DNA from: Candidatus Nomurabacteria bacterium
GTDB taxonomy: Bacteria; Patescibacteriota; Patescibacteriia; HK-STAS-PATE-3
Direction: 5' to 3'
Assembly (NCBI GenBank): GCA_023898465.1
Contig: CP060223.1
Location: forward strand, 288,001 to 352,000
Length of the DNA stretch: 64,000 nucleotides
This document shows positions 5,313-53,565 of the stretch, in pieces. Positions within the stretch are counted from its first letter, which is position 1, and every line of letters begins with the position of its first letter. The notes under the pieces are model-generated. The model was not told where the DNA came from, did no database searches, and saw only the letters and a list, made by a program, of their open reading frames with translations. Both the position numbers and the translations under genes were made by a program.

Positions 5313-5381
5313 TTTGAGCAGGGCCATAATGAAGGGCTTGGCGAATTGCGTAGTTTTTGTTACCCTACGCTGGTATTTCGG

Positions 5382-6520: not shown

Positions 6521-7633
6521 ATGAAGATTGGCATAGTTACGCAGAGCTTTTTCCCCATTCGCGGAGGTGTCGCAGAACACGTCTATCATACAGCGCATGC
6601 TTTAGAGCGGCGCGGACACGAGGTCGTTATTATTACGGCCAATTTTAGTCGTTTTGATGAGGATAGGGGATGTCGGGTCGAGCGCATCGGCCGCGATTTA
6701 ACCATTCCCTTTAATCAGGCTTTTGTAAACCTGACCATTAGCTGGAATATCCCGCAGGAGTTACGCCACCTAGAGCGCAAGTACGGCTTCGACGTGGTGC
6801 ATATTCACGGACCCTACGAACCATTTTTACCTGCCCTGGCGCTGAAGAATATCGAGTGCCCAAAGGTTGGCACTTTTCATGCCTTTAACGCGCATCCCTC
6901 GTTGGGCTATCGCGTGTTTGAAAATTACATCCGAACCTTTAAGGATCGTTTGTCAGCCCGCATCGCGGTTTCGCAAGCCGCTAAGGACTTTATCTCGCAT
7001 CATTTCCCGGATGATTATGAAATCATCCCAAACGGCGTGGATGTGCAGCGCTTTAGTCCGCAGGTCAAACCCTTCCCTTGGTATAACCCAGAGAAATTCA
7101 CCATCCTCTTTGTCGGTCGTATGGATCCGCGCAAAGGTTTGAAATATCTCTTACGCGCCTTCACCATGATCGCGTCCGAGTTCCCGCAGGCCGAGGTGGT
7201 GGTTGTCGGCAATGGTATATTGCGTCGCTATTACGAAACCTTTTTAGAGCCGAGCCTGAAAGATCGCGTGCGTTTCGAGGGCTTTGTCTCGGCTGCAGAT
7301 TTACCGCGCTACTATGCCTCCAGCGATGTGTATGTGTCGCCAGCCACCGGCAATGAGAGTTTCGGCATTGTCTTGCTCGAGGGTATGGCCAGCGGCAAGC
7401 CGGTGATTGCGTCGGATATTGACGGGTATCGGGATGTGATTCGCCATGGCCAGGATGGGATTTTGGTGCCAAAATCTGACCCAGCCGCCCTAGCCCAGGC
7501 TCTCCGCACCCTGGCCCGTGACCCGCAAGAAAGAGCAAAATACCAGCAGGCCGGCCGTCAGCGGGCTGAGGAATTCTCCTGGGAGTCTATTACTGACCGC
7601 TTGGAGGAGGTGTATAGGAGGGTGGTGTATTGA
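6521..7633 (+). CDS. GT4-family glycosyltransferase
   Basis: Glycos_transf_1-like C-terminus with EGMASGKPVIASDIDGYRDVI (E-x7-E) motif. Confidence 0.75.
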   Translation: MKIGIVTQSFFPIRGGVAEHVYHTAHALERRGHEVVIITANFSRFDEDRGCRVERIGRDLTIPFNQAFVNLTISWNIPQELRHLERKYGFDVVHIHGPYEPFLPALALKNIECPKVGTFHAFNAHPSLGYRVFENYIRTFKDRLSARIAVSQAAKDFISHHFPDDYEIIPNGVDVQRFSPQVKPFPWYNPEKFTILFVGRMDPRKGLKYLLRAFTMIASEFPQAEVVVVGNGILRRYYETFLEPSLKDRVRFEGFVSAADLPRYYASSDVYVSPATGNESFGIVLLEGMASGKPVIASDIDGYRDVIRHGQDGILVPKSDPAALAQALRTLARDPQERAKYQQAGRQRAEEFSWESITDRLEEVYRRVVY

Positions 7634-7666
7634 ACGTAGCAATGGAAGAATTATTAAAGTAAAAGA

Positions 7667-10600
7667 ATGGACTCTGCCCCATTAACACTACAAACGAAGA
7701 CACTGCAGAGGTCTTCCGATCTAAATAATTACAGACTCTATCGCGCAGCTCTTGAATGGGAGTTGATTGATCCTATTGTCATAGAAGACCGGGATGACAT
7801 GCATTCCGAAAGTAGTTGGCGTGATCGTCTTGAGCCGTATCATCATCAAGTAACTAACCTAATAACTTTTTGTCGTCGCCTACCTGTTACTTTACTGGCG
7901 GATGATGTCGGGTTAGGAAAAACAATTAGTGCTGGCCTAGTTTTAAGCGAGTTAATTTCGCGCGGGAGAATTTCAAAAATATTAATAGTTTGCCCAAAAA
8001 TACTTCGAGATCAGTGGAAAGAAGAATTGGAAATAAAGTTCCGAATTCCGTCCACAATTGTGACAGGAAGAGAATTAATTACGGCAAAGCCTCCTGAAGA
8101 ACCAGGAGCGGTAATTACCACATACAATACGGCCAGACTGTATTTAGATAGAATTGACCAGAATGGTTTTGAAATATTGATACTTGATGAGGCGCATAAA
8201 TTGCGGAATCTATATGGTGTTGACCCAACACCTCAAGTTGCAATTAAATTCCGTAAAGCTCTGGCTGACCGGATGTTTAAGTACGTATTAATGTTAACTG
8301 CAACGCCGATCCAGAACAGACTATGGGATCTCTACTCGTTGGTTGACTTATTAACCGTTGCACGCGGCCATGAAAATCCCTTTGGAACGCCAGGTATTTT
8401 TGCGAGAAAATTTATTGCAGATAGTCGCACACAAGCGCGTCAGCTTAATCCGGAGATGCGGGATGAGTTTCGCTCAATTATTTACGGTTATATGTCTCGG
8501 GTTCGTCGTGGAGATGCAAAACTCCACTTCCCAGAGCGGGTAGTACAGTTGCATAAAGTTGACCCAACACCAGAAGAATTGCAGTTGATCGGTGTGGTCG
8601 GAAAATCTATACAACAACTGAATGCGCTTACACAAATTGTAATCCTCCAAGCTTTGGTGAGTAGTCCAGAAGCGCTAATAAAGATGTTAGAAGGAATGGC
8701 TAAAAAAGGAACCGTACCGCGTGAGGTGTTGGCGAACGTTAAGGAATCAGCCAAAGAAATTCAAATCACTACAAAACTAAAAGGTTTGGGCGCGTTAGTT
8801 GAAAAACTTAGAAAGGAGCAACCCAATACTTGGCGGGTGGTAGTTTTTACAAGATGGCGAGAAACTCAAACAACTATCGAAACTTTTCTTGAAAAGCAAG
8901 GAGTAAAATGCGGCTTGATAAATGGCGATTCAAGTAAGCGAAATCAGGAAACAATCCAAAGATTTAAAAAAGACTTACCAGACATTAATGTAATTATTTC
9001 TACTGAAGCAGGTTCGGAGGGCGTTAACCTTCAGGCCGCTAATGTTTTGGTTAATTACGATCTCCCCTGGAATCCAATGATAGTGGAACAAAGAATAGGT
9101 CGTATTCAAAGACTTGCTTCTAATTATGCAAATGTTTCTATTTTTAATATTGTTTTGCAAAATACCTTTGAAGAATATATTGTAGGGCGCTTGATGGAAA
9201 AGTTGCAGATGGCTTCTCATGCAATTGGGGATATTGAAGCACTATTGGAAGCATCCGGCATTGATGAAGGTGAAGAAAATGGCTCAAGTGGTTTTGAAGA
9301 AAAAATTCGCCAGTTAGTAGTTGCATCTTTAGCTGGAAAAGATGTTGAGCAGGCAACTCGTAAAGCTGAACAGAGTATTTCAGAAGCTAAAACAGAATTA
9401 GACCATGAAGAAAAGAACATTAATGCTTTACTTGGGGGGATGAGTGATTCTCTAGATTCTGGTCCAAGATGTCCGAAGCTTCCTCAAACTACTAAGTCGA
9501 TGGATGTCCGTGATTTTACTACGGCTGCTCTTATGAGCTTAGGCGCGGAACTACATCCAAAAAAGGATGGTTTATTAGTTTCACAACTTGCTGGGAAAAA
9601 AGAATTAATCCGATTTGATAATAACACTCTGAGCAGTGAAGAGGAGAGTGTCTTATATGCACCGGGAACTTCAACTTTTGAACGCTTAGTCCATAAAGTT
9701 GCAAATGTAGGAAAACACATTGTTGAAGACCTTGATAAAAACCCCCAACAGCAAATTGAGAAAGTAAGTCGTCAATGGGTCGAAAGTTTTGGCGGAGACT
9801 TCGAAAATGTAACGGTAGAGGACGTTTCTCGATGTTTTGCAGGAGTAGCAATAATTCGTGCAAGATCAACAGTAGCTCACGATAGTTATGAGCGTCTCAT
9901 TGAGGTTTCGTGCGCTCCCACTGAGCATTTCAGTTTTGTGACAAGAACGGGATTGGAACCCATCGGAGACTATATTGAAAATCCGACATCTGTTGGTGCG
10001 CTTTCAGAAAAATTAATTGAAAAAGCCAGCCAAGACTCGAGTATTCTTGAGTTCTGTAGATTTTATTTAGAACGAAGATCTCAAGAAATTGCCTCCGCAG
10101 GAAATGACGAAAGAAAAAAGAAAAAGCTTGAGGATGAGTTTACGCCCCGTCTTGAATTTTCCCTAGTCGGTCTTGAGGGCAAGGTTCATCGGATAGTTAA
10201 AAATCAGGTCTCTTATAGAATTGAACGTGAGGGCCAATACAAAAGTACCCTCATGATAACCCCCTCTTCTGGGCAAGTTGATATGCCGGGGATGGGACAA
10301 TGCATGAAAACAGGTAAGACTGTACCGAGCGATTGCTTAGCAAAGTGCGAAATAAGCGGACTTATAGTATTGCGGCATTTTCTTGATCAATCAGAGATCA
10401 GTAATCGACTGGCGCTCCCTGAGCACATCGTTTTATGTACGTTAAGCAACAAGCGAGTGCTAGCGGACGAAGCTATAAAATCAGATGTTACGGGCAAACT
10501 AGTCGCAAAGAAGTTTTTAAAAACATCTTCTCTGAGTGGCAAATTCGCTGAACCACAGTTCATTAACACTTGTGAGTTTACAAAAACAGAAGTTCTGGAA

Positions 10601-20569: not shown

Positions 20570-20757
20570 GTTATTCCATCCCGCCCTCACCGTGTTGTTA
20601 TAAGTAACTGCTCAAAGTACCACCTTTGAGCAGTAGTAGCGCTCCTCCCTGAACGTGGTAGTTCATGGAGTTGGGTAGTTCTTGCGTGAAGGTATGCGCT
20701 CTGCTACCATACGGGCGTTTTCACGTTCCTTAGGAGTGAATCAAGAGGAGGGAGCAC

Positions 20758-21081
20758 ATGTCCTGCACTTTTACCTTTCCCGTACCCAAGGGCGTCACGG
20801 AGTTTCGGATCACCACACCCAATTCTGAGAAACTGGCCGGCACCGGACCTCGCTGGGTGGAGGTCAAGGAAGGCTGGACCAGATCCTACAAGCCGATCGA
20901 GGGTGGGCCTGGTACCATCAGAGTGACCAAGGTTGGTCAGGTGCGAGGCGGACACCGTATGGTGACCGTCGAGCTGGTCGACATGACCGCCACCTACGAG
21001 GCGGTGCTGCACTGCAAGCCGGCACCGAGCCAGGCAGTGCAGGAGGCCAGACAGGAGGTCCCGGTCGCCCAAGCATCCTAG
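20758..21081 (+). CDS. GC-rich small protein (107 aa), probably horizontally acquired
   Basis: About 62% GC with strong GC3 bias in a ~47% GC genome. GGAGGG RBS and its own downstream terminator. Confidence 0.5.
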   Translation: MSCTFTFPVPKGVTEFRITTPNSEKLAGTGPRWVEVKEGWTRSYKPIEGGPGTIRVTKVGQVRGGHRMVTVELVDMTATYEAVLHCKPAPSQAVQEARQEVPVAQAS

Positions 21082-21103
21082 CTTCTCGACGCGCATAGTC
21101 CAC

Positions 21104-21137
21104 AACGGCCTAGTATTGCACTGGGCCGTTTTCTTTT
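21104..21137 (+). terminator. rho-independent terminator after the GC-rich ORF
   Basis: AACGGCC-loop-GGCCGTT stem followed by TTCTTTT. Confidence 0.55.
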
Positions 21138-42834: not shown

Positions 42835-43704
42835 ATGGCCAAAGCAATCGAAAAAAAAGATAAGTTTCACACTGATAAGTCGCCAACTTGGTGCCCGGGC
42901 TGCGGCGATTTCAGTATTTGGATGGCGCTGAAAGAAGCGTTGGAGAAGTTGCAGCTAGAACCAGAAAAAGTTGTGATTGTGTACGGCATTGGTTGTTCTG
43001 GCAATATGGCGAATTATGTCCGCACCTATGGCTTCCACGGCCTGCACGGAAGAGCCTTACCAGTAGGTGAGGCGGTGAAGATGATTAATCCAGGCATGAC
43101 CGTGATCGTAGTCGGTGGAGATGGTGATGGTTTGGGCGAGGGGATCGGCCATTTCTTGCACTCAGTGCGTGGCAATCATGATCTCACGTATATTATTCAT
43201 GATAACCAGGTGTATGGCCTAACCACTGGGCAGACCGCGCCAACCTCAGCTAAGGGTTTTGTTACAAAATCTACTCCCTTCGGCGTCTTGGAAGAGCCGG
43301 TGAACGCCGCAGCACTAGCTTTAGCAGCTGGCGGGCACTTTGTGGCGCGTGGTTTTGCTGGCGAGCAAATGCATTTGGTTGATACTTTGGTTCGAGCTAT
43401 TCAGCACCCTGGCTTCTCGCTTGTAGATGTACTCCAGCCTTGTGTCACTTTTAATGACTTAAATACCTACGCCTGGTTTTTTGAGCGTATTTACAAACTG
43501 GAAGAGAGTGAGTATGCTCCGAATGACCGAATGCAGGCGATGGTAAAAGCAATGGAAAGCGCCACGCTGCCGATTGGTGTGATGTATGAAGGTGAAAGTA
43601 CGCCATATCATTTGGGTGTTGAGGGTCTGGATATTAGTAAGCCTTTAGCTGAGCAAAAGTTGAAGCCGAGAAATATTTCTACGATTGTCGAGCACTACCT
43701 CTAA
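42835..43704 (+). CDS. korB: 2-oxoacid:ferredoxin oxidoreductase beta subunit (TPP-binding)
   Basis: WCPGCGD motif and TPP-binding GDG...N motif. Confidence 0.8.
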   Translation: MAKAIEKKDKFHTDKSPTWCPGCGDFSIWMALKEALEKLQLEPEKVVIVYGIGCSGNMANYVRTYGFHGLHGRALPVGEAVKMINPGMTVIVVGGDGDGLGEGIGHFLHSVRGNHDLTYIIHDNQVYGLTTGQTAPTSAKGFVTKSTPFGVLEEPVNAAALALAAGGHFVARGFAGEQMHLVDTLVRAIQHPGFSLVDVLQPCVTFNDLNTYAWFFERIYKLEESEYAPNDRMQAMVKAMESATLPIGVMYEGESTPYHLGVEGLDISKPLAEQKLKPRNISTIVEHYL

Positions 43705-45496
43705 GATGAGCACCACAACTCAGGAACAGTTTCGGGAGGGGCCGAGCACGTCACGGGCGCGTTGGCTTTTTCGTAACCCAGTCGCCGAAAGCTTTGCCGC
43801 CAGCTTCCCTGAACATAGCGCGGTTATGCTGCAGCTATTGCAGGCACGGGGCTTAGAAAAGCAAACGCAAATTGATGAATTTTTGCAGCCTGATTATGGC
43901 AGCGACGTGCATGACCCTTTCCTTTTTCGTGATATGCACAAAGCGGTTGATCGCATTATTGATGGCGTGAAAAAAAATGAACGCATTGTTGTGTATGGCG
44001 ACTATGATGCTGATGGCGTGTGTGGCGCTTCTGTGCTCTGGTCTACTCTACATGCCCTCGGTGCCAACCCAGGAGTGTATTTACCTGATCGGCAGAGTGA
44101 GGGTTATGGTTTAAATGAAAAAGCCCTAGAGTCGCTTCACTCGCAGGGTTACACTCTCGTAATCACGGTTGATTGCGGTGTGACGAGCGTGGGGGAAGTA
44201 AAGAAGGCAAATGAGTTAGGCATCGACGTTATTATCACTGACCACCATAGCGAGCCGCCGGAGCTACCTGCCGCTTTTGCTATTCTCAACCCAAAACTCG
44301 CTGAAGAAACATATCCATTTCGTGAATTAGCCGGTACTGCTGTAGGTTTTAAACTAGCTCATGCGCTTTTACTTAAAAGTGAGTATGGGAAATCCTTTAA
44401 TCGTGAGCCCCTCGTGCAAGGTTGGGAAAAATGGCTACTTGATTTAGTGGCAATAGCCACTGTAGCAGACATGATGCCGATGTTAGGTGAGAATCGCACG
44501 TTAACCATGTATGGCTTGAAGGTGTTGCAAAAAACCCGCCGCCTGGGATTACGTTCACTTTTCTCTGTCATGCATAATGATCTCGCGAAAGCGGATACCG
44601 AGACTATCGGCTTCATGATAGCTCCACGCTTAAATGCAGCTGGTCGCCTTGATCATGCAAACACTGCTTTTCGTTTACTTGTTACTGAGGACGCCGCTGA
44701 AGCATTCGCACTGGCTGACGATTTAGAACGGACCAATACAGCTCGCCAGGCAGAGACAGAGCGAATCGTTGATGCAGCTATTGAGCAAATTGGATCTGAG
44801 CCCGAGCAACCGATTGTCGGTGCGTATCATCCAGACTGGCAAGTTGGCGTACTGGGATTAGCGGCCGGCCGCCTGGTGCATCGCTATGGACGTCCGGCTA
44901 TTGTTATGGCTAAGGTGCGTGGTCTGGTAACGGGATCAGGACGTTCTATACCTGCGCTAAATCTCATGGAAGCACTTGACCCGCTTCGTCCAAATTTTGA
45001 AAAGTTCGGTGGGCATCCGCAGGCATGTGGCTTCACATTGAAGGCAAATTACACACCAGAGGAATTTGTTATAGATTTTGCCGCGCGCGCCGGAGAGCTG
45101 CTGAAGGGGAGGGAGTTAGCACCGGAATTACTTATTGACGCGGAACTAGTTTTGCATGATGTGAATTGGGATTTACTTGAACAAATTGAGCAACTGGCAC
45201 CTTTTGGACAGAATGCGCGACGTCCAATTTTCGCAGTCCGCAATGTACAGGTCGTTGAAGCGCGCCAGGTAGGCAAGAAAAATCAACACCTCAGCCTTAC
45301 CATTCGTTCTGCGCAGGGGACTGAACATCGTAGCATCGGCTTTACCTGGGGAGAGGAGCACAGTAAACTACCAGTAGGCAAAAATATTGATTTAGCTTTT
45401 GAGCTCAGTGCAGACGAATGGAATGGTGAACGTCGCCTGCAGCTCAAAATACTTGATATTCATTACAGCGATGAAACAGATAATACTTCGATCTGA
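43685..45496 (+). CDS. recJ: single-stranded-DNA-specific exonuclease RecJ
   Basis: DHH motifs (VVYGDYDADGV, ITDHH) and DHHA1 region (GGHPQACG). Confidence 0.85.
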   Translation: MSSTTSKMSTTTQEQFREGPSTSRARWLFRNPVAESFAASFPEHSAVMLQLLQARGLEKQTQIDEFLQPDYGSDVHDPFLFRDMHKAVDRIIDGVKKNERIVVYGDYDADGVCGASVLWSTLHALGANPGVYLPDRQSEGYGLNEKALESLHSQGYTLVITVDCGVTSVGEVKKANELGIDVIITDHHSEPPELPAAFAILNPKLAEETYPFRELAGTAVGFKLAHALLLKSEYGKSFNREPLVQGWEKWLLDLVAIATVADMMPMLGENRTLTMYGLKVLQKTRRLGLRSLFSVMHNDLAKADTETIGFMIAPRLNAAGRLDHANTAFRLLVTEDAAEAFALADDLERTNTARQAETERIVDAAIEQIGSEPEQPIVGAYHPDWQVGVLGLAAGRLVHRYGRPAIVMAKVRGLVTGSGRSIPALNLMEALDPLRPNFEKFGGHPQACGFTLKANYTPEEFVIDFAARAGELLKGRELAPELLIDAELVLHDVNWDLLEQIEQLAPFGQNARRPIFAVRNVQVVEARQVGKKNQHLSLTIRSAQGTEHRSIGFTWGEEHSKLPVGKNIDLAFELSADEWNGERRLQLKILDIHYSDETDNTSI

Positions 45497-45881
45497 CGGC
45501 GGCGCGCGGGGCAACCCAGGTCCAGCCGGTATTGGCGTGGTCCTAGAGGCTGATGGGCAAATCGTAGCAGAAATCAGCGAGTATATTGGTGAAGCGACGA
45601 ACAATGTTGCTGAGTACTCAGCCTTGATTGCTGGTCTGAAAAAAGCTAAAGAATTAGCCGCTACAACCGTGCAGTGCTTTCTCGATAGTCAGTTGATTGT
45701 TGAGCAGATGAATTTACGCTACAAAGTAAAAAATCCAGACTTGGGTAAACTTTTCTTGCAAGCGCAAAACCTGGCACACACTTTTAGTAAAGTGACCTAT
45801 CAGCATGTACCGCGCGAATTAAATAAAGCCGCTGATGCGCTGGTGAATAAGGCGATTGATAGTGCGGTGGGCGCTAGCTAA
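45474..45881 (+). CDS. rnhA: RNase H type I-like protein
   Basis: DGGARGNPGPAG...NNVAEYSAL motifs, as in actinobacterial RNase H domains. Confidence 0.7.
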   Translation, partial: KQIILRSDGGARGNPGPAGIGVVLEADGQIVAEISEYIGEATNNVAEYSALIAGLKKAKELAATTVQCFLDSQLIVEQMNLRYKVKNPDLGKLFLQAQNLAHTFSKVTYQHVPRELNKAADALVNKAIDSAVGAS

Positions 45882-45891
45882 CTTTATTCGC

Positions 45892-46281
45892 ATGCACAAG
45901 GACATTGAATTATATAACAGGGCTTTAACGGCAAAAGAAAAAGCCATTTGCACAACGCTTGCTCACAGCATTGACGAGAGTCTTAAGTTGGCAGAAAGTA
46001 AAATATGGCACGCCCATCCGGTTTGGTTCTTAGCCGGTAATCCCATTGTCGGGTATAGTAAAATGAAGGAAGGTGTTCGGATACTTTTTTGGAGCGGCCA
46101 ATCCTTTGATGAGGAAAAGTTACAACCCGAAGGAAGTTTTAAAGCAGCTGAAGCCAGATATACTAATGTGAAGCAAATGAATAAAACTGACCTTAAAAGG
46201 TGGCTAAAAAAGGCAAAAGAAATTCAGTGGGACTACAAAAATATAGTCAAGCGAAAAGGACGACTTGAGAGGTTGAAATAG
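45892..46281 (+). CDS. hypothetical protein, DUF1801/YdhG-like
   Basis: HPVWFLAGNPIVGY...ILFWSG pattern. Low confidence in the family assignment. Confidence 0.35.
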   Translation: MHKDIELYNRALTAKEKAICTTLAHSIDESLKLAESKIWHAHPVWFLAGNPIVGYSKMKEGVRILFWSGQSFDEEKLQPEGSFKAAEARYTNVKQMNKTDLKRWLKKAKEIQWDYKNIVKRKGRLERLK

Positions 46282-46330
46282 CGTTGTGTTAACTAGACGG
46301 TTCTTGATGGTGAGTTTTTTTATTTAAACA

Positions 46331-46546
46331 AAGAAAAAGACCCCCCATCAGATGTGCTAATGGGGGGTAGGGACGGGTCTCGGCGGCACCTTAGGGCACC
46401 AGGGGTCCGCTCTGTTCTACGGTCAACTTTTTCACGTCTCAAGGGACGTGCCAAAGAGTGCTGAACAATCACAGACCGCGTTGGCCACTGTATGCACTCG
46501 CTCACCATCCCGTGTGCAGAAGCTAACAAAAACTACCTTTTGCGTC
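46331..46546 (-). ncRNA. candidate small RNA on the minus strand, ending at a canonical rho-independent terminator
   Basis: Minus-strand hairpin ACCCCCCAT-11nt-ATGGGGGGT followed by TCTTTTTCTTT at 46331-46368. GC-rich structured body. Putative TTGCAA-18-CATACT promoter at 46554-46583. No convincing protein-like ORF. Confidence 0.4.
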
Positions 46547-46629
46547 AATAGAGAGTATGACAATTACCAACTTTCCTTGCAAAAAAGGTCATTTTCAGGC
46601 ACTATTAGCCCGTACTTAACCACACACCT

Positions 46630-49386
46630 ATGCGCATGCGACGATGGATTCTCACAATAGTAGCAGTAGTTTTTGTGCTCAGTGCTTTAATTGCAGCTTT
46701 AGCGAACACCATAACAGATTGGTGGTGGTTTCAATCGATTCAGCAGACTGATCTCTTCCTCACGCCATTGTATACACAACTACTCTTAGGTTTCGGAGTA
46801 GGCTTATTTGTGGCTCTACTTTTCTTTTTTAATACCTATTTAGTTGGTCGTTTCGCGCGTACGCCATCAAAGACTTTTCAATGGTCACAACGAAAAGGGG
46901 ATGCTGTAGAAATTAAGTCGGTAGCGGTGGCGCCATTTGCTCGCAAGATAAGCATGGTCTTTGCCTTGCTCCTTGGGTTAATTTTTGGATTTACTGCGGC
47001 TAGTCACTGGGAAACCGTGCAACTATTCCTTCATCGTGTGGCTGTTGGACAGACCGATCCATTATTTGGGCGTGATGTGAGTTATTACTTTTTCACGCTG
47101 CCTTTTGTAAAGATTGTGGTACAGACGGCTTTTGCGGCCATGTTACTACTCACCATAACGACCATTGTTTTGTATTTTGTGCATGGTGCCTTAGAAGTTG
47201 GTCGTCGCATTATGGGGCGGGATCGACTGGGTATGAAGACTTTAGTAAGCGCCGCACGTCAGCATCTGTCCATTATCAGCGCGATTCTTTTCGCCTTAGT
47301 CGCTGTTCAGCTTTATTTCATCGCAGTTCCGGATTTAGTGTATAGCGCTACTGGTCCAATCACTGGAGCGAGTTATACCGATGTCCACATCCGCTTGCCC
47401 ATCCTTTATATCGGCACGGGTATTGCGATTCTTCTAGCCGTCAGTCTACTTGCCCACAGTATTAAATCCTCTACACGTTGGGTGGCTGGATTTGCCGGAG
47501 CTTTTCTAGTTCTCTTCATTGTCGGTGGTTGGTTAGTGCCTGATTTGTTGCAGCGCTTCGTTGTTTTACCGAACGAATTAGATAAAGAGTCGGAGTATAT
47601 CACCCGTCATCTCGAGGCTACTCGGCAAGCCTATGGTTTAGATACCATTGAGAAACGTGATCTATCCGGTGACACCGCACTAACCCGGAGTGATATTGAT
47701 GCGAATCCTGGCACAATTAAAAATGTTCGCTTGTGGGATCGCGATCCACTTCTTGATACCTTTAGCCAGATTCAGGAAATTCGCACCTACTATGAGTTTA
47801 ATTCGATCGATAATGATCGCTATACCATCAATGGTGATTATCGTCAGGTGCTATTGTCACCCCGTGAATTGGAGGCTGGGAATCTCCCTCAGCGTAATTT
47901 TATTAACGAGCATCTAACCTTCACCCACGGATATGGACTTACCTTGGGTCCTGTGAACGAAGTCACACCAGAAGGTTTACCAGTGCTATTTGTGCAGGAT
48001 ATTCCACCAAGCTCTTCCACTAATGTTGAGGTGAAGCGTCCGGAAATTTACTTCGGTGAATTAGCAAATGATTACGTCGTAGTAGATAGCGGTGCGAAAG
48101 AGTTTGATTATCCATCCGGTGAGGAAAATGTCTTCAGTGATTACAGTGGAGATGGGGGAGTGCAGGTGAACTCTCTATTCCGTAAGTTGCTCTACGCTAT
48201 TCGCTTCCAATCAAGTAAATTCCTGTTCTCCTCAGATATCAAAGGCGACTCACGCGTCATGTACTACCGTGATATTCAGGATCGAGTGCAGCGTACCTTG
48301 CCGTTTTTACGCTTTGATGGTGACCCATATCTCGTGGTGCGTGATGATGGTTCCTTGACTTGGATCTACGACGCGTATACCACCTCGAATGCGTATCCAT
48401 ATGCCGAGCGAGTCTCTGATGCACTCCTACAGCATAATAGCGGTGGGCTCTATGGTCAGATTAACTACATTCGCAATGCGGTAAAAGTGAGCATTGATGG
48501 ATATACAGGCGCCATGACCTTCTATGTCGCGGACGCTAATGATGCAATTATTCAGGCATATCAGGGCGTTTTCCCGGCTAGCTTCACCTCAATGAATGAA
48601 ATGCCGGATGATTTGCGTTCACATATCCGCTTCCCAGAAGATATGTTCCAGTATTTGACCAACATCTACTCGATCTATCACATGGAGGATGCGCAAATCT
48701 TCTATAACCGCGAGGACCAGTGGTCGATTCCAACCCGGCCAAATGAAAGCTCTGATCCCTTCATGCGACATATGATTATGCGCTTGCCAGAAGAGGAAAA
48801 AGAGGAATACATCCTCATGCTTCCTTTCACGCCTAGGGGTAAAGATAATCTCTCAGCCTGGATGGTTGCCCGAAATGACGGCCAACACTACGGTCAATTG
48901 GTTGTGTATCGATTCCCGAAACAAAAGTTAGTGTATGGCCCAATCCAGATCATCAATCGTATTAACCAGGATCCGGATATTTCGCGACAAATTTCACTTT
49001 GGGATCAGCGCGGCTCAGAGGTTATTCGTGGTAACTTGTTGGTTATCCCGATTGAGTCATCCTTGCTTTATGTGCAGCCAATTTATCTCCGTGCCGAAGG
49101 AGGACGCATCCCAGAGTTGAAGCGCGTCATTGTAGCGCATGAAAACAAGATCGCCATGGAGGAAACGCTTGATCAAGCCTTGATTCGACTTTTCCCTCGT
49201 GATGGAGAGGCGCCAGCACCGAGCAATACCACCGATGAAGAGACTGATACCACGGACGCAAGTGTGGCGCAGCAGGCCAGCGATGCATACCAGCGAGCCT
49301 TAGATGCGCAGCGGAATGGCGACTGGACGACCTATGGCGAGGAGATACAGCGTCTCGGTGAGTTGCTTGGGCAGCTAAACCAATAG
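46630..49386 (+). CDS. UPF0182-family large membrane protein
   Basis: 918 aa with N-terminal multi-TM region carrying a WWWF motif, and a large extracytoplasmic domain, as in actinobacterial UPF0182 proteins. Confidence 0.65.
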   Translation: MRMRRWILTIVAVVFVLSALIAALANTITDWWWFQSIQQTDLFLTPLYTQLLLGFGVGLFVALLFFFNTYLVGRFARTPSKTFQWSQRKGDAVEIKSVAVAPFARKISMVFALLLGLIFGFTAASHWETVQLFLHRVAVGQTDPLFGRDVSYYFFTLPFVKIVVQTAFAAMLLLTITTIVLYFVHGALEVGRRIMGRDRLGMKTLVSAARQHLSIISAILFALVAVQLYFIAVPDLVYSATGPITGASYTDVHIRLPILYIGTGIAILLAVSLLAHSIKSSTRWVAGFAGAFLVLFIVGGWLVPDLLQRFVVLPNELDKESEYITRHLEATRQAYGLDTIEKRDLSGDTALTRSDIDANPGTIKNVRLWDRDPLLDTFSQIQEIRTYYEFNSIDNDRYTINGDYRQVLLSPRELEAGNLPQRNFINEHLTFTHGYGLTLGPVNEVTPEGLPVLFVQDIPPSSSTNVEVKRPEIYFGELANDYVVVDSGAKEFDYPSGEENVFSDYSGDGGVQVNSLFRKLLYAIRFQSSKFLFSSDIKGDSRVMYYRDIQDRVQRTLPFLRFDGDPYLVVRDDGSLTWIYDAYTTSNAYPYAERVSDALLQHNSGGLYGQINYIRNAVKVSIDGYTGAMTFYVADANDAIIQAYQGVFPASFTSMNEMPDDLRSHIRFPEDMFQYLTNIYSIYHMEDAQIFYNREDQWSIPTRPNESSDPFMRHMIMRLPEEEKEEYILMLPFTPRGKDNLSAWMVARNDGQHYGQLVVYRFPKQKLVYGPIQIINRINQDPDISRQISLWDQRGSEVIRGNLLVIPIESSLLYVQPIYLRAEGGRIPELKRVIVAHENKIAMEETLDQALIRLFPRDGEAPAPSNTTDEETDTTDASVAQQASDAYQRALDAQRNGDWTTYGEEIQRLGELLGQLNQ

Positions 49387-49387
49387 C

Positions 49388-49954
49388 ATGAAACGGGGGA
49401 TCAAGGTACTGCTTATTTCCGACGCTTGGATTAATCTTGCCTTAGGCATGATAGGTCCGATTTACGCTATTTTTGTGGAAGACATTGGCGGGGACCTCCT
49501 GGACGCGAGCTGGGCGTATTCCGTTTACATGATCACTGCTGGAGTTGTGATGTTTTTGCTTGGTAAGTGGGAGGATCGCGCCAAACACAAGGAAAAGTTT
49601 GTGGTTATTGGTTATGCGCTTATTAGCCTAGCGTGTTTCATGTATATTTTTGTGAATAGTCAGATTATGCTTTTGTTCACGCAGGCAGTACTTGGACTTT
49701 CTCTCGCCGTGCTCAGTCCGTCATTTGATGCCATTTATTCACATTTTGTGAAGCGTAAAGAAGAGGCCTCAAATTGGGGTATTTGGGAAGCGATGAGTTA
49801 TGTAGTGACCGCCATTGCCGCGATCATTGGAGGCTATGTCGCGGACGGTTTCGGTTTCCGCACCCTTTTCATTGTCATGTTTGTTATTTCCTTATTTGGT
49901 ACAAGTTATAGCATGCATTTGTATCGAGGTAAGAAGTATTTGAATCGGGGATGA
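49388..49954 (+). CDS. 6-TM MFS-like half-transporter (possible gene fragment)
   Basis: 188 aa, about 6 hydrophobic helices. GGYVADGFGFR resembles the MFS motif-A loop. Confidence 0.4.
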   Translation: MKRGIKVLLISDAWINLALGMIGPIYAIFVEDIGGDLLDASWAYSVYMITAGVVMFLLGKWEDRAKHKEKFVVIGYALISLACFMYIFVNSQIMLLFTQAVLGLSLAVLSPSFDAIYSHFVKRKEEASNWGIWEAMSYVVTAIAAIIGGYVADGFGFRTLFIVMFVISLFGTSYSMHLYRGKKYLNRG

Positions 49955-50612: not shown

Positions 50613-51031
50613 GTGCTGACGTGCGCCGGATGACTGCTCCGCCTTAGGTGGAGAGGAAAGTCCGAACACCCCCCAAGCCCCCCATTTTTGAGAGGTTTGT
50701 GGAAGTAGGTCGTTCCGAAAGGGAACCGAGCAATTGGTTGTAAGCTTTCGGCCGAATAACCAATGGTTTAGGGAAAGTGTCACAGAGACAATACTGCCGA
50801 TGATCTCGCTTAGCGGGATACAGGTAATAGGTGAAAAGTAAGGGCCTAAGAATCCTTTCTCTTCATAGGTGACTATGAGGAGTGAAAAACCCGACCTGGT
50901 GCAAGATCGCATAGGTCTAGTCATTCGACTGGACGGGTAGATCGCATGATCCCGACGGCGACGTCGGGGCTAGAGAGATAGTCATCCCTCATTATGAGGA
51001 CAGAATTCGGCTTATAGGTGTGCGTCAGCAC
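50613..51031 (+). ncRNA. rnpB: RNase P RNA, bacterial type A
   Basis: Conserved blocks GAGGAAAGTCCGAACAC (P4), ACAGAGACAA, GGTAATAGGTGAAAAG, GACAGAATTCGGCTTAT (3' P4 strand). P1 helix GTGCTGACG/CGTCAGCAC closes the molecule. About 420 nt. Confidence 0.85.
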
Positions 51032-52432: not shown

Positions 52433-53565
52433 AAAAACCACGCATCGCTTTAGTTCATGAGCACTTAGCCCAGGACGGGGGAGCAGAAAAAGTGCTGAAA
52501 GTGTTTCAGGAAATGTTTCCTGAGGCGCCTACCTATACCTTGGTATTTGATAAACGCAAAACGAATCGGGCCTTTTTAGGAAAGGATATTCGCACGTCTT
52601 TTATTCAAAAGTTGCCTTTCGGGGTACGTCATTATCAAATGTATTTGCCACTTATGCCATCGGCGGTTGAGCAATTCAACTTAGGTGACTACGATATTGT
52701 GCTCTCTTCCAGTTCTGCTTTATCAAAGGGCGTGCTCACGCTTCCAGAGACTCTTCACATTTGTTACTGCCATTCACCAACGCGCTATCTGTGGAGTGAT
52801 ACGCATCGTTACGTGCAGGAGCTACCCTACAATCGTCTGATCAAAAAGTTTGTTCCGATGCTGCTTAATCGCATTCGCATGTGGGACCGTTTAGCGGCTG
52901 AGCGAGTTGATACTTTTATTGCAAATTCATACGCTATCCGACGTCGCATTCAGAAATATTATCAGCGCGACAGTCAGGTTATTTATCCGCCGGTTGATGC
53001 ACAGTCATTTAGTATTAGCCCGACTATTGGCAATTACTATTTGATCGGTGGTCGCTTAGTTGCGTACAAGCGCTATGACCTGGCGGTGATGGCCTTTAAT
53101 CGCCTTGGTATTCCTTTGAAGATATTTGGCGATGGGCCGGAACTTAAAAACCTCAAAAGCATTGCTAAGTCTAATATTGAGTTTGTCGGCAAAGTTTCGC
53201 CGGATGAATTAAAAAAGCTGTATCGTGAGTGCGTGGCTTTTCTTCACCCACAAGAAGAAGACTTTGGCATCACTGCAATTGAGGCAATGGCGTCTGGTCG
53301 TCCTGTTATTGCGTATGCGGCTGGTGGTGCGCTGGAAACAGTAATACCCGGAAAAACAGGCGAGCTTTTTGATGATCAAAATTGGGAAACCTTAGCAGAC
53401 ACAATAGTCCGTTTCCATCCCGAACAGTATTCACCAGAAGAAATTCGTGCGCACGCTTTGCAGTTTGATACCGAAGTGTTTAAGAAGCGGGTGCACGACT
53501 TTGTCGATCAAAAATACGCTGAGCATTCAACTATTCGTAATTCATCACATCCCTATGGAGCTTGA
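52429..53565 (+). CDS. GT4-family glycosyltransferase
   Basis: GT4 fold with EAMASGRPVIAYAAGGALE motif. ATGA overlap with the upstream gene. Confidence 0.75.
   Translation: MKKPRIALVHEHLAQDGGAEKVLKVFQEMFPEAPTYTLVFDKRKTNRAFLGKDIRTSFIQKLPFGVRHYQMYLPLMPSAVEQFNLGDYDIVLSSSSALSKGVLTLPETLHICYCHSPTRYLWSDTHRYVQELPYNRLIKKFVPMLLNRIRMWDRLAAERVDTFIANSYAIRRRIQKYYQRDSQVIYPPVDAQSFSISPTIGNYYLIGGRLVAYKRYDLAVMAFNRLGIPLKIFGDGPELKNLKSIAKSNIEFVGKVSPDELKKLYRECVAFLHPQEEDFGITAIEAMASGRPVIAYAAGGALETVIPGKTGELFDDQNWETLADTIVRFHPEQYSPEEIRAHALQFDTEVFKKRVHDFVDQKYAEHSTIRNSSHPYGA

Follow-up and report, generated by a model that had tools for sequence, protein, structure and literature searches.

Introduction

The described RNAs that most resemble the candidate gene analysed here are 6S RNA, SRP RNA (4.5S/ffs) and the Hfq-type trans-acting small RNAs. 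6S RNA (RF00013, together with lineage-specific 6S-like RNAs) is a rod with paired ends, is transcribed from its own promoter to its own terminator and has the GC-rich character of a stable RNA. The candidate is predicted to share these features and is of similar size, but it differs in matching no 6S model, in having no large predicted bubble and in lacking conservation among close relatives. Hfq-type small RNAs are transcribed independently from intergenic regions, measure 50–250 nt and end in a terminator hairpin with a U-tail, all of which is predicted for the candidate as well; the candidate, in contrast to them, would be almost entirely double-stranded, with no obvious seed and with no target complementarity found in the neighbouring UPF0182 gene. 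SRP RNA is, like the candidate, one long hairpin of comparable size, and the candidate also adjoins a gene tied to membrane-protein homeostasis. Identity with SRP RNA was nevertheless rejected, as the candidate matches no Rfam SRP model, its terminal stem is capped by the apical loop CCUUGA rather than a GNRA tetraloop, and the AGCA/GGAA motifs of domain IV are absent.

The adjoining gene encodes UPF0182, a widespread membrane protein. In Actinobacteria, UPF0182 has been linked to FtsH-dependent membrane-protein quality control, in a preprint that makes no mention of an RNA (10.1101/2025.11.14.688347).

Here we describe the gap directly 5′ of the UPF0182 gene in a 64-kb stretch of DNA from a Candidatus Nomurabacteria genome (the window, to which coordinates refer unless a contig is named). 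This gap probably holds a real stand-alone non-coding RNA gene. The reading that we favour, with moderate confidence, is that positions 46513-46333 of the minus strand encode a structured RNA of ~181 nt that belongs to no known family. A different-looking RNA gene, supported by covariation, occupies the same position relative to UPF0182 in six other Patescibacteria.

The locus and its flanking genes

The local gene order is RecJ, an RNase H-like gene, DUF1801, a gap of 348 nt, UPF0182, an MFS fragment and RNase P RNA:

43685-45496: RecJ gene
45399-45881: RNase H-like gene
45856-46281, plus strand: DUF1801 gene
46630-49386, plus strand: UPF0182 gene (PF03699, 923 bits; start at 46636 according to NCBI), divergent from the candidate RNA gene
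50618-51030: RNase P RNA

The UPF0182 product is 100% identical to a protein from a Candidatus Nomurabacteria (Patescibacteria/CPR) MAG, encoded on a contig of 1,082,586 bp; among the next relatives, identity drops to 62% at most. In the interval from UPF0182 to RNase P RNA, the match of a 188-aa ORF (49388-49954, plus strand) to the MFS_1 profile covers only 10-166 of its 347 positions, and the ORF looks like a truncated transporter gene or a pseudogene. An apparent 1-kb gene-free gap further on (52433-53446) was discarded as an artefact of ORF filtering, being filled by a 402-aa ORF.

The preliminary description of this locus had proposed an independent transcription unit on the minus strand, and had noted that both flanking genes are on the plus strand. 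DUF1801 and UPF0182 are indeed both plus-strand genes; because neither side has a co-oriented gene, the candidate RNA is neither a 3′ UTR nor a leader. A riboswitch or other 5′ leader was rejected on the same ground, DUF1801 lying downstream on the opposite strand, and no Rfam aptamer was found.

A putative promoter and terminator on the minus strand

Within the gap, the following features can be recognised or predicted:

46582-46553, minus strand: alternative promoter TTGCAA-18-CATACT of the preliminary description (direct reading of the sequence)
46548-46543, minus strand: −35 hexamer TTGACG of the preferred promoter (motif scan)
46528-46520, minus strand: extended −10 element TGT-TAGCTT of the preferred promoter, after a 17-nt spacer
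~46513 (46511-46515), minus strand: predicted transcription start, 7 nt past the −10 (promoter geometry)
46512-46369, minus strand: imperfect rod of 144 nt, with closing helix GGGAUGG/CCGUCCC, middle section and 25-bp terminal stem
46368-46340, minus strand: intrinsic terminator hairpin ACCCCCCATTAGCACATCTGATGGGGGGT, 12-bp stem with 7 G-C pairs and a 5-nt loop
46330-46339, minus strand: U-tract CUUUUUCUUU, with the predicted 3′ end of the RNA near 46333
46529/46508-46320, minus strand: long ORF of 69 codons, shortened to 62 if read from an internal AUG (ORF list)

The canonical minus-strand intrinsic terminator of the preliminary description is present. The hairpin at 46368-46340 has a folding energy of −21.1 kcal/mol and is followed by CTTTTTCTTT, so that 46368-46330 combines a G+C-rich hairpin with a U-tract on the transcribed strand, as an intrinsic terminator should. 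On its plus-strand side the hairpin is flanked by AGGGACGG, which has no U-tract, and the terminator is therefore one-directional. A scan of the window for perfect-stem terminators returned five sites, four of which each stand 3′ of a co-oriented ORF; the one at 46368-46340 is the longest of the five and the sole orphan, with no co-oriented ORF upstream.

A second potential orphan terminator, at 21104, was rejected because it follows a co-oriented ORF. In that region (20704-21130), a strong plus-strand terminator (21104-21130) closely follows the end of a plus-strand ORF of 107 aa (20758-21081), and the longest ORF (20704-21105, minus strand, 133 aa, no Pfam match) is probably spurious.

Upstream of the rod, TTGACG-17-TGT-TAGCTT (46548-46520, minus strand) has the form of a promoter of the sigma-70 type, in which the −35 is close to consensus and the −10 is extended. 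The pattern TTGACR-N16-18-TANNNT occurs seven times on the two strands of the window, against 3.0 expected, and the other six matches are all intergenic, each just 5′ of a gene or RNA with the same orientation; RNase P RNA and tRNA-Thr are among these. There is a further resemblance to a stable-RNA promoter: the 13-mer GTAGTTTTTGTTA (46536-46524) has an exact copy at 5350-5362, in the promoter of tRNA-Glu (chance expectation 0.09 matches), and in both promoters it covers the end of the spacer and the beginning of the −10. In total, the tRNA-Glu promoter TTGGCG-17-TACCCT (5336-5366, plus strand) is identical to 46520-46548 (minus strand) at 21 of 29 promoter positions.

The promoter proposed in the preliminary description, TTGCAA-18-CATACT, does exist at 46582-46553, but the TTGACG promoter is stronger and lies closer in. 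The former matches the consensus at only 4/6 and 4/6 positions, has an 18-nt spacer and was not returned by the consensus scan, and no counterpart of it was found in relatives. Judged by its motifs and spacing, 46548-46520 is the more convincing of the two, and it would start transcription near 46513, 1–2 nt ahead of the closing helix of the rod. With this promoter preferred, the predicted RNA is therefore ~181 nt long rather than the ~215 nt first suggested; the order of promoter, body and terminator in the earlier account stands, and its length does not.

The predicted RNA body is a GC-rich rod

The segment between start and terminator (46369-46512) is GC-rich and hairpin-rich, as had been observed before: its GC content is 59%, compared with 47% for the window, 55–58% for the tRNAs and 51% for RNase P RNA. 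On the minus strand, its minimum free energy (MFE) is −55.5 kcal/mol (z = −2.2), a value that 6 of 200 shuffled sequences equal, and z falls to −2.8 when leader and terminator are added. The complementary plus strand also folds as a rod, at −49.2 kcal/mol (z = −1.3). Folding thus exceeds chance, though only modestly. The minus-strand rod has 48 pairs, eight of them G-U, and the plus strand has six G-U pairs, a small asymmetry between the strands.

In the ensemble, the outer 7-bp helix and the 25-bp terminal stem have high pair probability, and the middle is of low probability and weakly determined; the proposed fold is a single-sequence prediction with a modest z-score and no covariation support of its own. 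The terminator begins 1 nt after the base of the rod. The predicted ~181-nt RNA would thus be a rod with paired ends and a terminator directly after it, in which the first bases of the RNA pair with the bases just 5′ of the terminator and so close the 144-nt rod.

The intergenic slot differs among relatives

We detected no homologue of the candidate by sequence. Neither blastn nor nhmmer found one in any of the fetched loci, and a single-sequence covariance model (R1) returned nothing over 590 kb of UPF0182 loci, nor on the nearest relatives with filters off; in all, none was found in ~640 kb of UPF0182 loci. JGI metagenomes, scanned with a transition-tolerant pattern, gave 0 matches, as did two pattern scans of viral collections, and blastn against plasmids and phages gave no match. 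A metagenome scan in which the search was anchored on the protein returned no relative above 48% identity over the N-terminal part.

Two Logan contigs cover part of the locus itself. One (L011) is identical to the window over 45025-46534 and adds nothing new; an identical contig is present in Logan run SRR23493594. The other (L010, from SRR17818317) is 91.5% identical at the nucleotide level through RNase H and DUF1801 and passes into unrelated DNA right past the DUF1801 stop, in a comparison that extends only to the end of the contig, short of UPF0182. Because unrelated genes follow DUF1801 in L010, the slot between DUF1801 and UPF0182 is a variable region. There are two of them, both small and on the minus strand, at 785-1747 of L010, straight after DUF1801. 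Their products (115 and 95 aa) have no Pfam match, and both genes end in the near-identical terminator GACGACCCGCCAKCAAGAGGTCGTCTTTTTT.

More distant loci agree. In L008, whose UPF0182 is 62% identical, the synteny of RecJ, RNase H, UPF0182 and RNase P RNA is kept and other genes fill the slot; in none of the four closest UPF0182 relatives (L001, L008, L009 and L098; 58–62% identity) was an RNA found in the gap. L008 also has, between RNase H and a metallophosphatase gene, an AT-rich stretch of 820 nt with three copies of the motif AACGTTTCGGCG(Y)RT (7190-7960, minus strand), of which the window has none. The same stretch contains a small ORF on the plus strand that is not among the called genes and has a GGAGG site.

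The neighbouring DUF1801 gene appears to have a history of its own. The nearest homologues of its product are Bacteroidota proteins (Niastella, Pinibacter, Cyclobacteriaceae) at 73–76% identity, far above the identity of any neighbouring gene to any other genome, and DUF1801 is absent from the syntenic L008 locus. This CPR lineage probably obtained the gene by horizontal transfer, and since it adjoins the stretch with the candidate RNA, that stretch could be foreign DNA too. Transfer of the RNA together with DUF1801 was rejected, because the RNA was not found in the Bacteroidota DUF1801 loci examined (L012-L016).

The element might, then, be non-functional or selfish DNA, either a horizontal remnant or a MITE-like palindromic repeat, placed by chance between promoter-like and terminator-like sites. 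An origin of this kind would fit the Bacteroidota-like neighbour, the wholly different slot in L010 and L008, the rod formed by the plus strand and the lack of a homologue in the collections searched. We consider it unlikely, because the marks expected of a mobile element were not seen in the window: there is no second copy of the rod in the 64 kb (~6% of the genome), terminal inverted repeats with a target-site duplication are not visible around it, and no RYYYAAC...GTTRRRY core pair flanks it, which led us to reject an integron attC site. A transcription start at the base of the rod and a terminator 1 nt beyond it would also be hard to obtain accidentally, and the promoter motif otherwise marks real gene or RNA starts in six of six cases.

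Comparison with known RNA families, including 6S RNA

At gathering thresholds, a scan of the whole window with Rfam 15 found no family at the candidate RNA. Relaxing the threshold to E≤10 on 521-nt and 161-nt targets gave only noise, namely PyrR at 21.5 bits (threshold 54) and miRNA and snoRNA models. ARAGORN placed no tRNA or tmRNA there, its only predictions in the window being tRNA-Glu and tRNA-Thr elsewhere, and on this basis both identities were rejected. These results agree with the preliminary description, in which no 6S, SRP or tmRNA motifs had been recognised and the RNA had been left unclassified.

A rival reading is a highly diverged 6S-type RNA; RNAs of this type are rod-shaped, bind and sequester the RNA polymerase holoenzyme and template a product RNA. 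A length of 145–181 nt would fit, as would a closing stem formed by the 5′ and 3′ ends with a long terminal stem beyond it, the promoter resembling those of stable RNAs, and the low-probability middle, on whose 3′ side a GGUGCC-CUAA-GGUGCC hairpin is possible in near-optimal folds. A further point in favour is that, in the literature searched, no paper connects 6S RNA with Patescibacteria (CPR). Against these likenesses, the Rfam 6S models (RF00013 and related 6S-like models) are silent at gathering thresholds and even at E≤10 on either target, and the MFE and centroid folds have only small internal loops (≤4x3) in place of a large central bubble. Absence from close relatives would also be unexpected for a housekeeping RNA. 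On balance a 6S identity seems rather unlikely.

Six further Patescibacteria with an RNA gene head-to-head with UPF0182

Six Patescibacteria have a minus-strand RNA gene divergent from UPF0182, inside the gap of 240–350 nt directly 5′ of that gene, and their UPF0182 proteins are 54–57% identical to that of the window (three further loci are duplicates: L097 = L020, L100 = L101 and L102 = L103). The RNA genes lie at:

L097 7722-7917, minus strand: six-genome RNA
L099 7722-7916, minus strand: six-genome RNA
L100 2725-2919, minus strand: six-genome RNA
L102 2750-2923, minus strand: six-genome RNA
L018 2745-2910, minus strand: six-genome RNA
L019 2742-2911, minus strand: six-genome RNA

In their promoters, a spacer of 17 nt separates TTGACA from a TGn-extended −10 that is mostly TAGnnT (the TGn-TAGnnT form is found in L018, L019, L097 and L102), and at their 3′ ends stands either a U-tract or a terminator hairpin of its own. 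The core is ~90 nt long. Over the six distinct sequences, pairing in its outer helix of 17 bp reaches 96%, with seven compensatory pairs; none of 500 shuffles attains the observed value, and slid controls give 35–59% pairing. A covariance model trained on four members recovered the two left out of the training (51.5 and 34.6 bits). No Rfam 15 family matches these RNAs, which therefore constitute an unclassified, covariation-supported RNA family (models R2 and A6).

The 5′ leaders of the L097, L100 and L102 RNAs contain a second GGAGGG-like string, a possible competitor of the 5′ strand in the closing helix. The gene after the RNA has its own promoter. Where that gene is Dus, the promoter takes the form TGnTATAAT, 6 nt, ATG (~2712-2740 in L018, ~2711-2740 in L019 and ~2717-2745 in L102, all minus strand), which suggests that extended −10 promoters give rise to leaderless Dus mRNAs in these three relatives.

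Terminators upstream of UPF0182 in two other groups of loci were set aside, one belonging to a small protein gene and the other to the lysine riboswitch of dapA. The riboswitch (86–98 bits) occurs in UPF0182 loci from sediment and marine samples (L054 2500-2683 and L071 2432-2615, both minus strand), and the gene 3′ of it in L071 (1326-2360, minus strand, 344 aa) resembles dapA in its sequence. The terminators of these two riboswitches are unrelated to the window RNA.

Is the window RNA a member of the six-genome family?

Several features of the six-genome RNAs recur in the window. The candidate, too, is predicted to be a stand-alone minus-strand gene divergent from UPF0182, with a promoter of the same form and otherwise different surrounding synteny. 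The distance from the −35 to the UPF0182 start codon is 82 nt in the window and 78–85 nt in the six relatives, and the candidate fits a positional description of the family (UPF0182-divergent, TTGACR-17-TGnTAnnnT, −35 ~80–85 nt from the start). Both have a rod-like body whose closing helix begins with GGGRU and ends with (A/G)UCCC, followed by a U-tract or terminator hairpin, and both are absent from Rfam; the closing helices of the window (GGGAUGG/CCGUCCC) and L018 (GGGAUGC/GCAUCCC) are nearly alike.

The differences are as marked. The core is ~90 nt in the family and 144 nt in the window RNA, most family members have a 5′ leader of 30–45 nt that the window RNA lacks, and the conserved family strings CACUYG..., ACGGRCA and YRGGYR are not recognisable in it. 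Neither the family covariance model nor the family HMM matches the window rod, the best score (3.6 bits) falling on the terminator. In the reverse direction, a model derived from the window, run without filters on 69 kb of family loci, gave two matches at E≤10, one of which exactly spans the L019 RNA (8.1 bits, E ~9). The 9-mer GUAGAACAG that the window shares with L019 was treated as chance, as it is not kept within the L019 subgroup, and in a MAFFT/RNAalifold alignment of window and family the 3′ strand of the window is placed ambiguously.

Taking these comparisons together, we put the odds that the window RNA and the six-genome RNA are homologous at about even. The window RNA is not assigned to the family; it may be described as the positional counterpart of the six-genome RNA, and possibly as a highly diverged homologue. 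A search for conservation in homologous intergenic regions has thus yielded no homologue by sequence, and has yielded a different-looking, covariation-supported RNA at the same position beside UPF0182 in six genomes. The conservation of the window RNA would accordingly be one of position.

Discussion

The evidence assembled here partly supports the earlier reading of an independent minus-strand transcription unit, and suggests how the unit might work. Transcription would start near 46513 from the promoter at 46548-46520, and the one-directional terminator (46368-46340) with its U-tract would end the RNA before it could enter DUF1801 in antisense. The product would most likely be a free, stable, protein-bound RNA rather than a seed-pairing small RNA, because it is predicted to be almost fully base-paired, is GC-rich and has a promoter like the stable-RNA promoters of this genome; the predicted fold also leaves little single-stranded seed sequence. 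The back-to-back placement suggests co-regulation with UPF0182, and the RNA is probably expressed in step with that gene through a shared divergent control region. A regulatory duplex with the UPF0182 mRNA was rejected, as in none of seven genomes is the UPF0182 5′ region more complementary to the RNA than to shuffled controls (z −1.6 to +0.9).

The same geometry could mean that the unit acts mainly in cis, with the RNA as a minor product: transcription might insulate or tune the UPF0182 promoter, or run antisense to read-through from DUF1801 into UPF0182. The head-to-head arrangement with UPF0182 is kept in seven genomes despite differing synteny, and no plus-strand terminator was found after DUF1801, so a read-through transcript would be fully complementary to the candidate RNA. 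Even so, we regard a mainly cis role as quite unlikely. The covariation support for the RNA of the relatives argues for selection on the RNA product, the UPF0182 5′ complementarity just described stays within the shuffled controls, and the two divergent promoters probably do not overlap.

A small protein is very improbable, for although the 62- or 69-codon frame covers nearly the whole element, its stop codon (46322-46320) lies past the terminator U-tract and a terminated transcript would therefore be stop-less, its AUG is ~5 nt from the start given by the preferred promoter with no ribosome-binding site, and its Arg/Pro/Ser-rich product has no Pfam match and finds only low-complexity matches, in repetitive long proteins, among 1.84 billion protein representatives; to judge from these features, it is not a credible protein gene.

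We therefore return to a stand-alone RNA gene as the preferred reading. To our knowledge, the non-coding RNAs described for Patescibacteria are, apart from the universal ones, few. The small genomes of these bacteria have little room for non-functional intergenic DNA, and a self-contained RNA gene is for that reason a concrete target for metatranscriptomics. If the window RNA is unrelated to the six-genome RNA, it would be a lineage-specific orphan of modest interest, an interest that the presence of an RNA family beside UPF0182 in six genomes somewhat raises. If the two belong together, they would provide a testable link between an RNA and UPF0182. It is conceivable, if unlikely, that all of these genes represent one ancient, fast-evolving Patescibacteria RNA family, kept head-to-head with UPF0182 through functional coupling to that protein; were this so, the RNA would be a previously unknown component or regulator of the FtsH-dependent pathway in these ultra-small bacteria.
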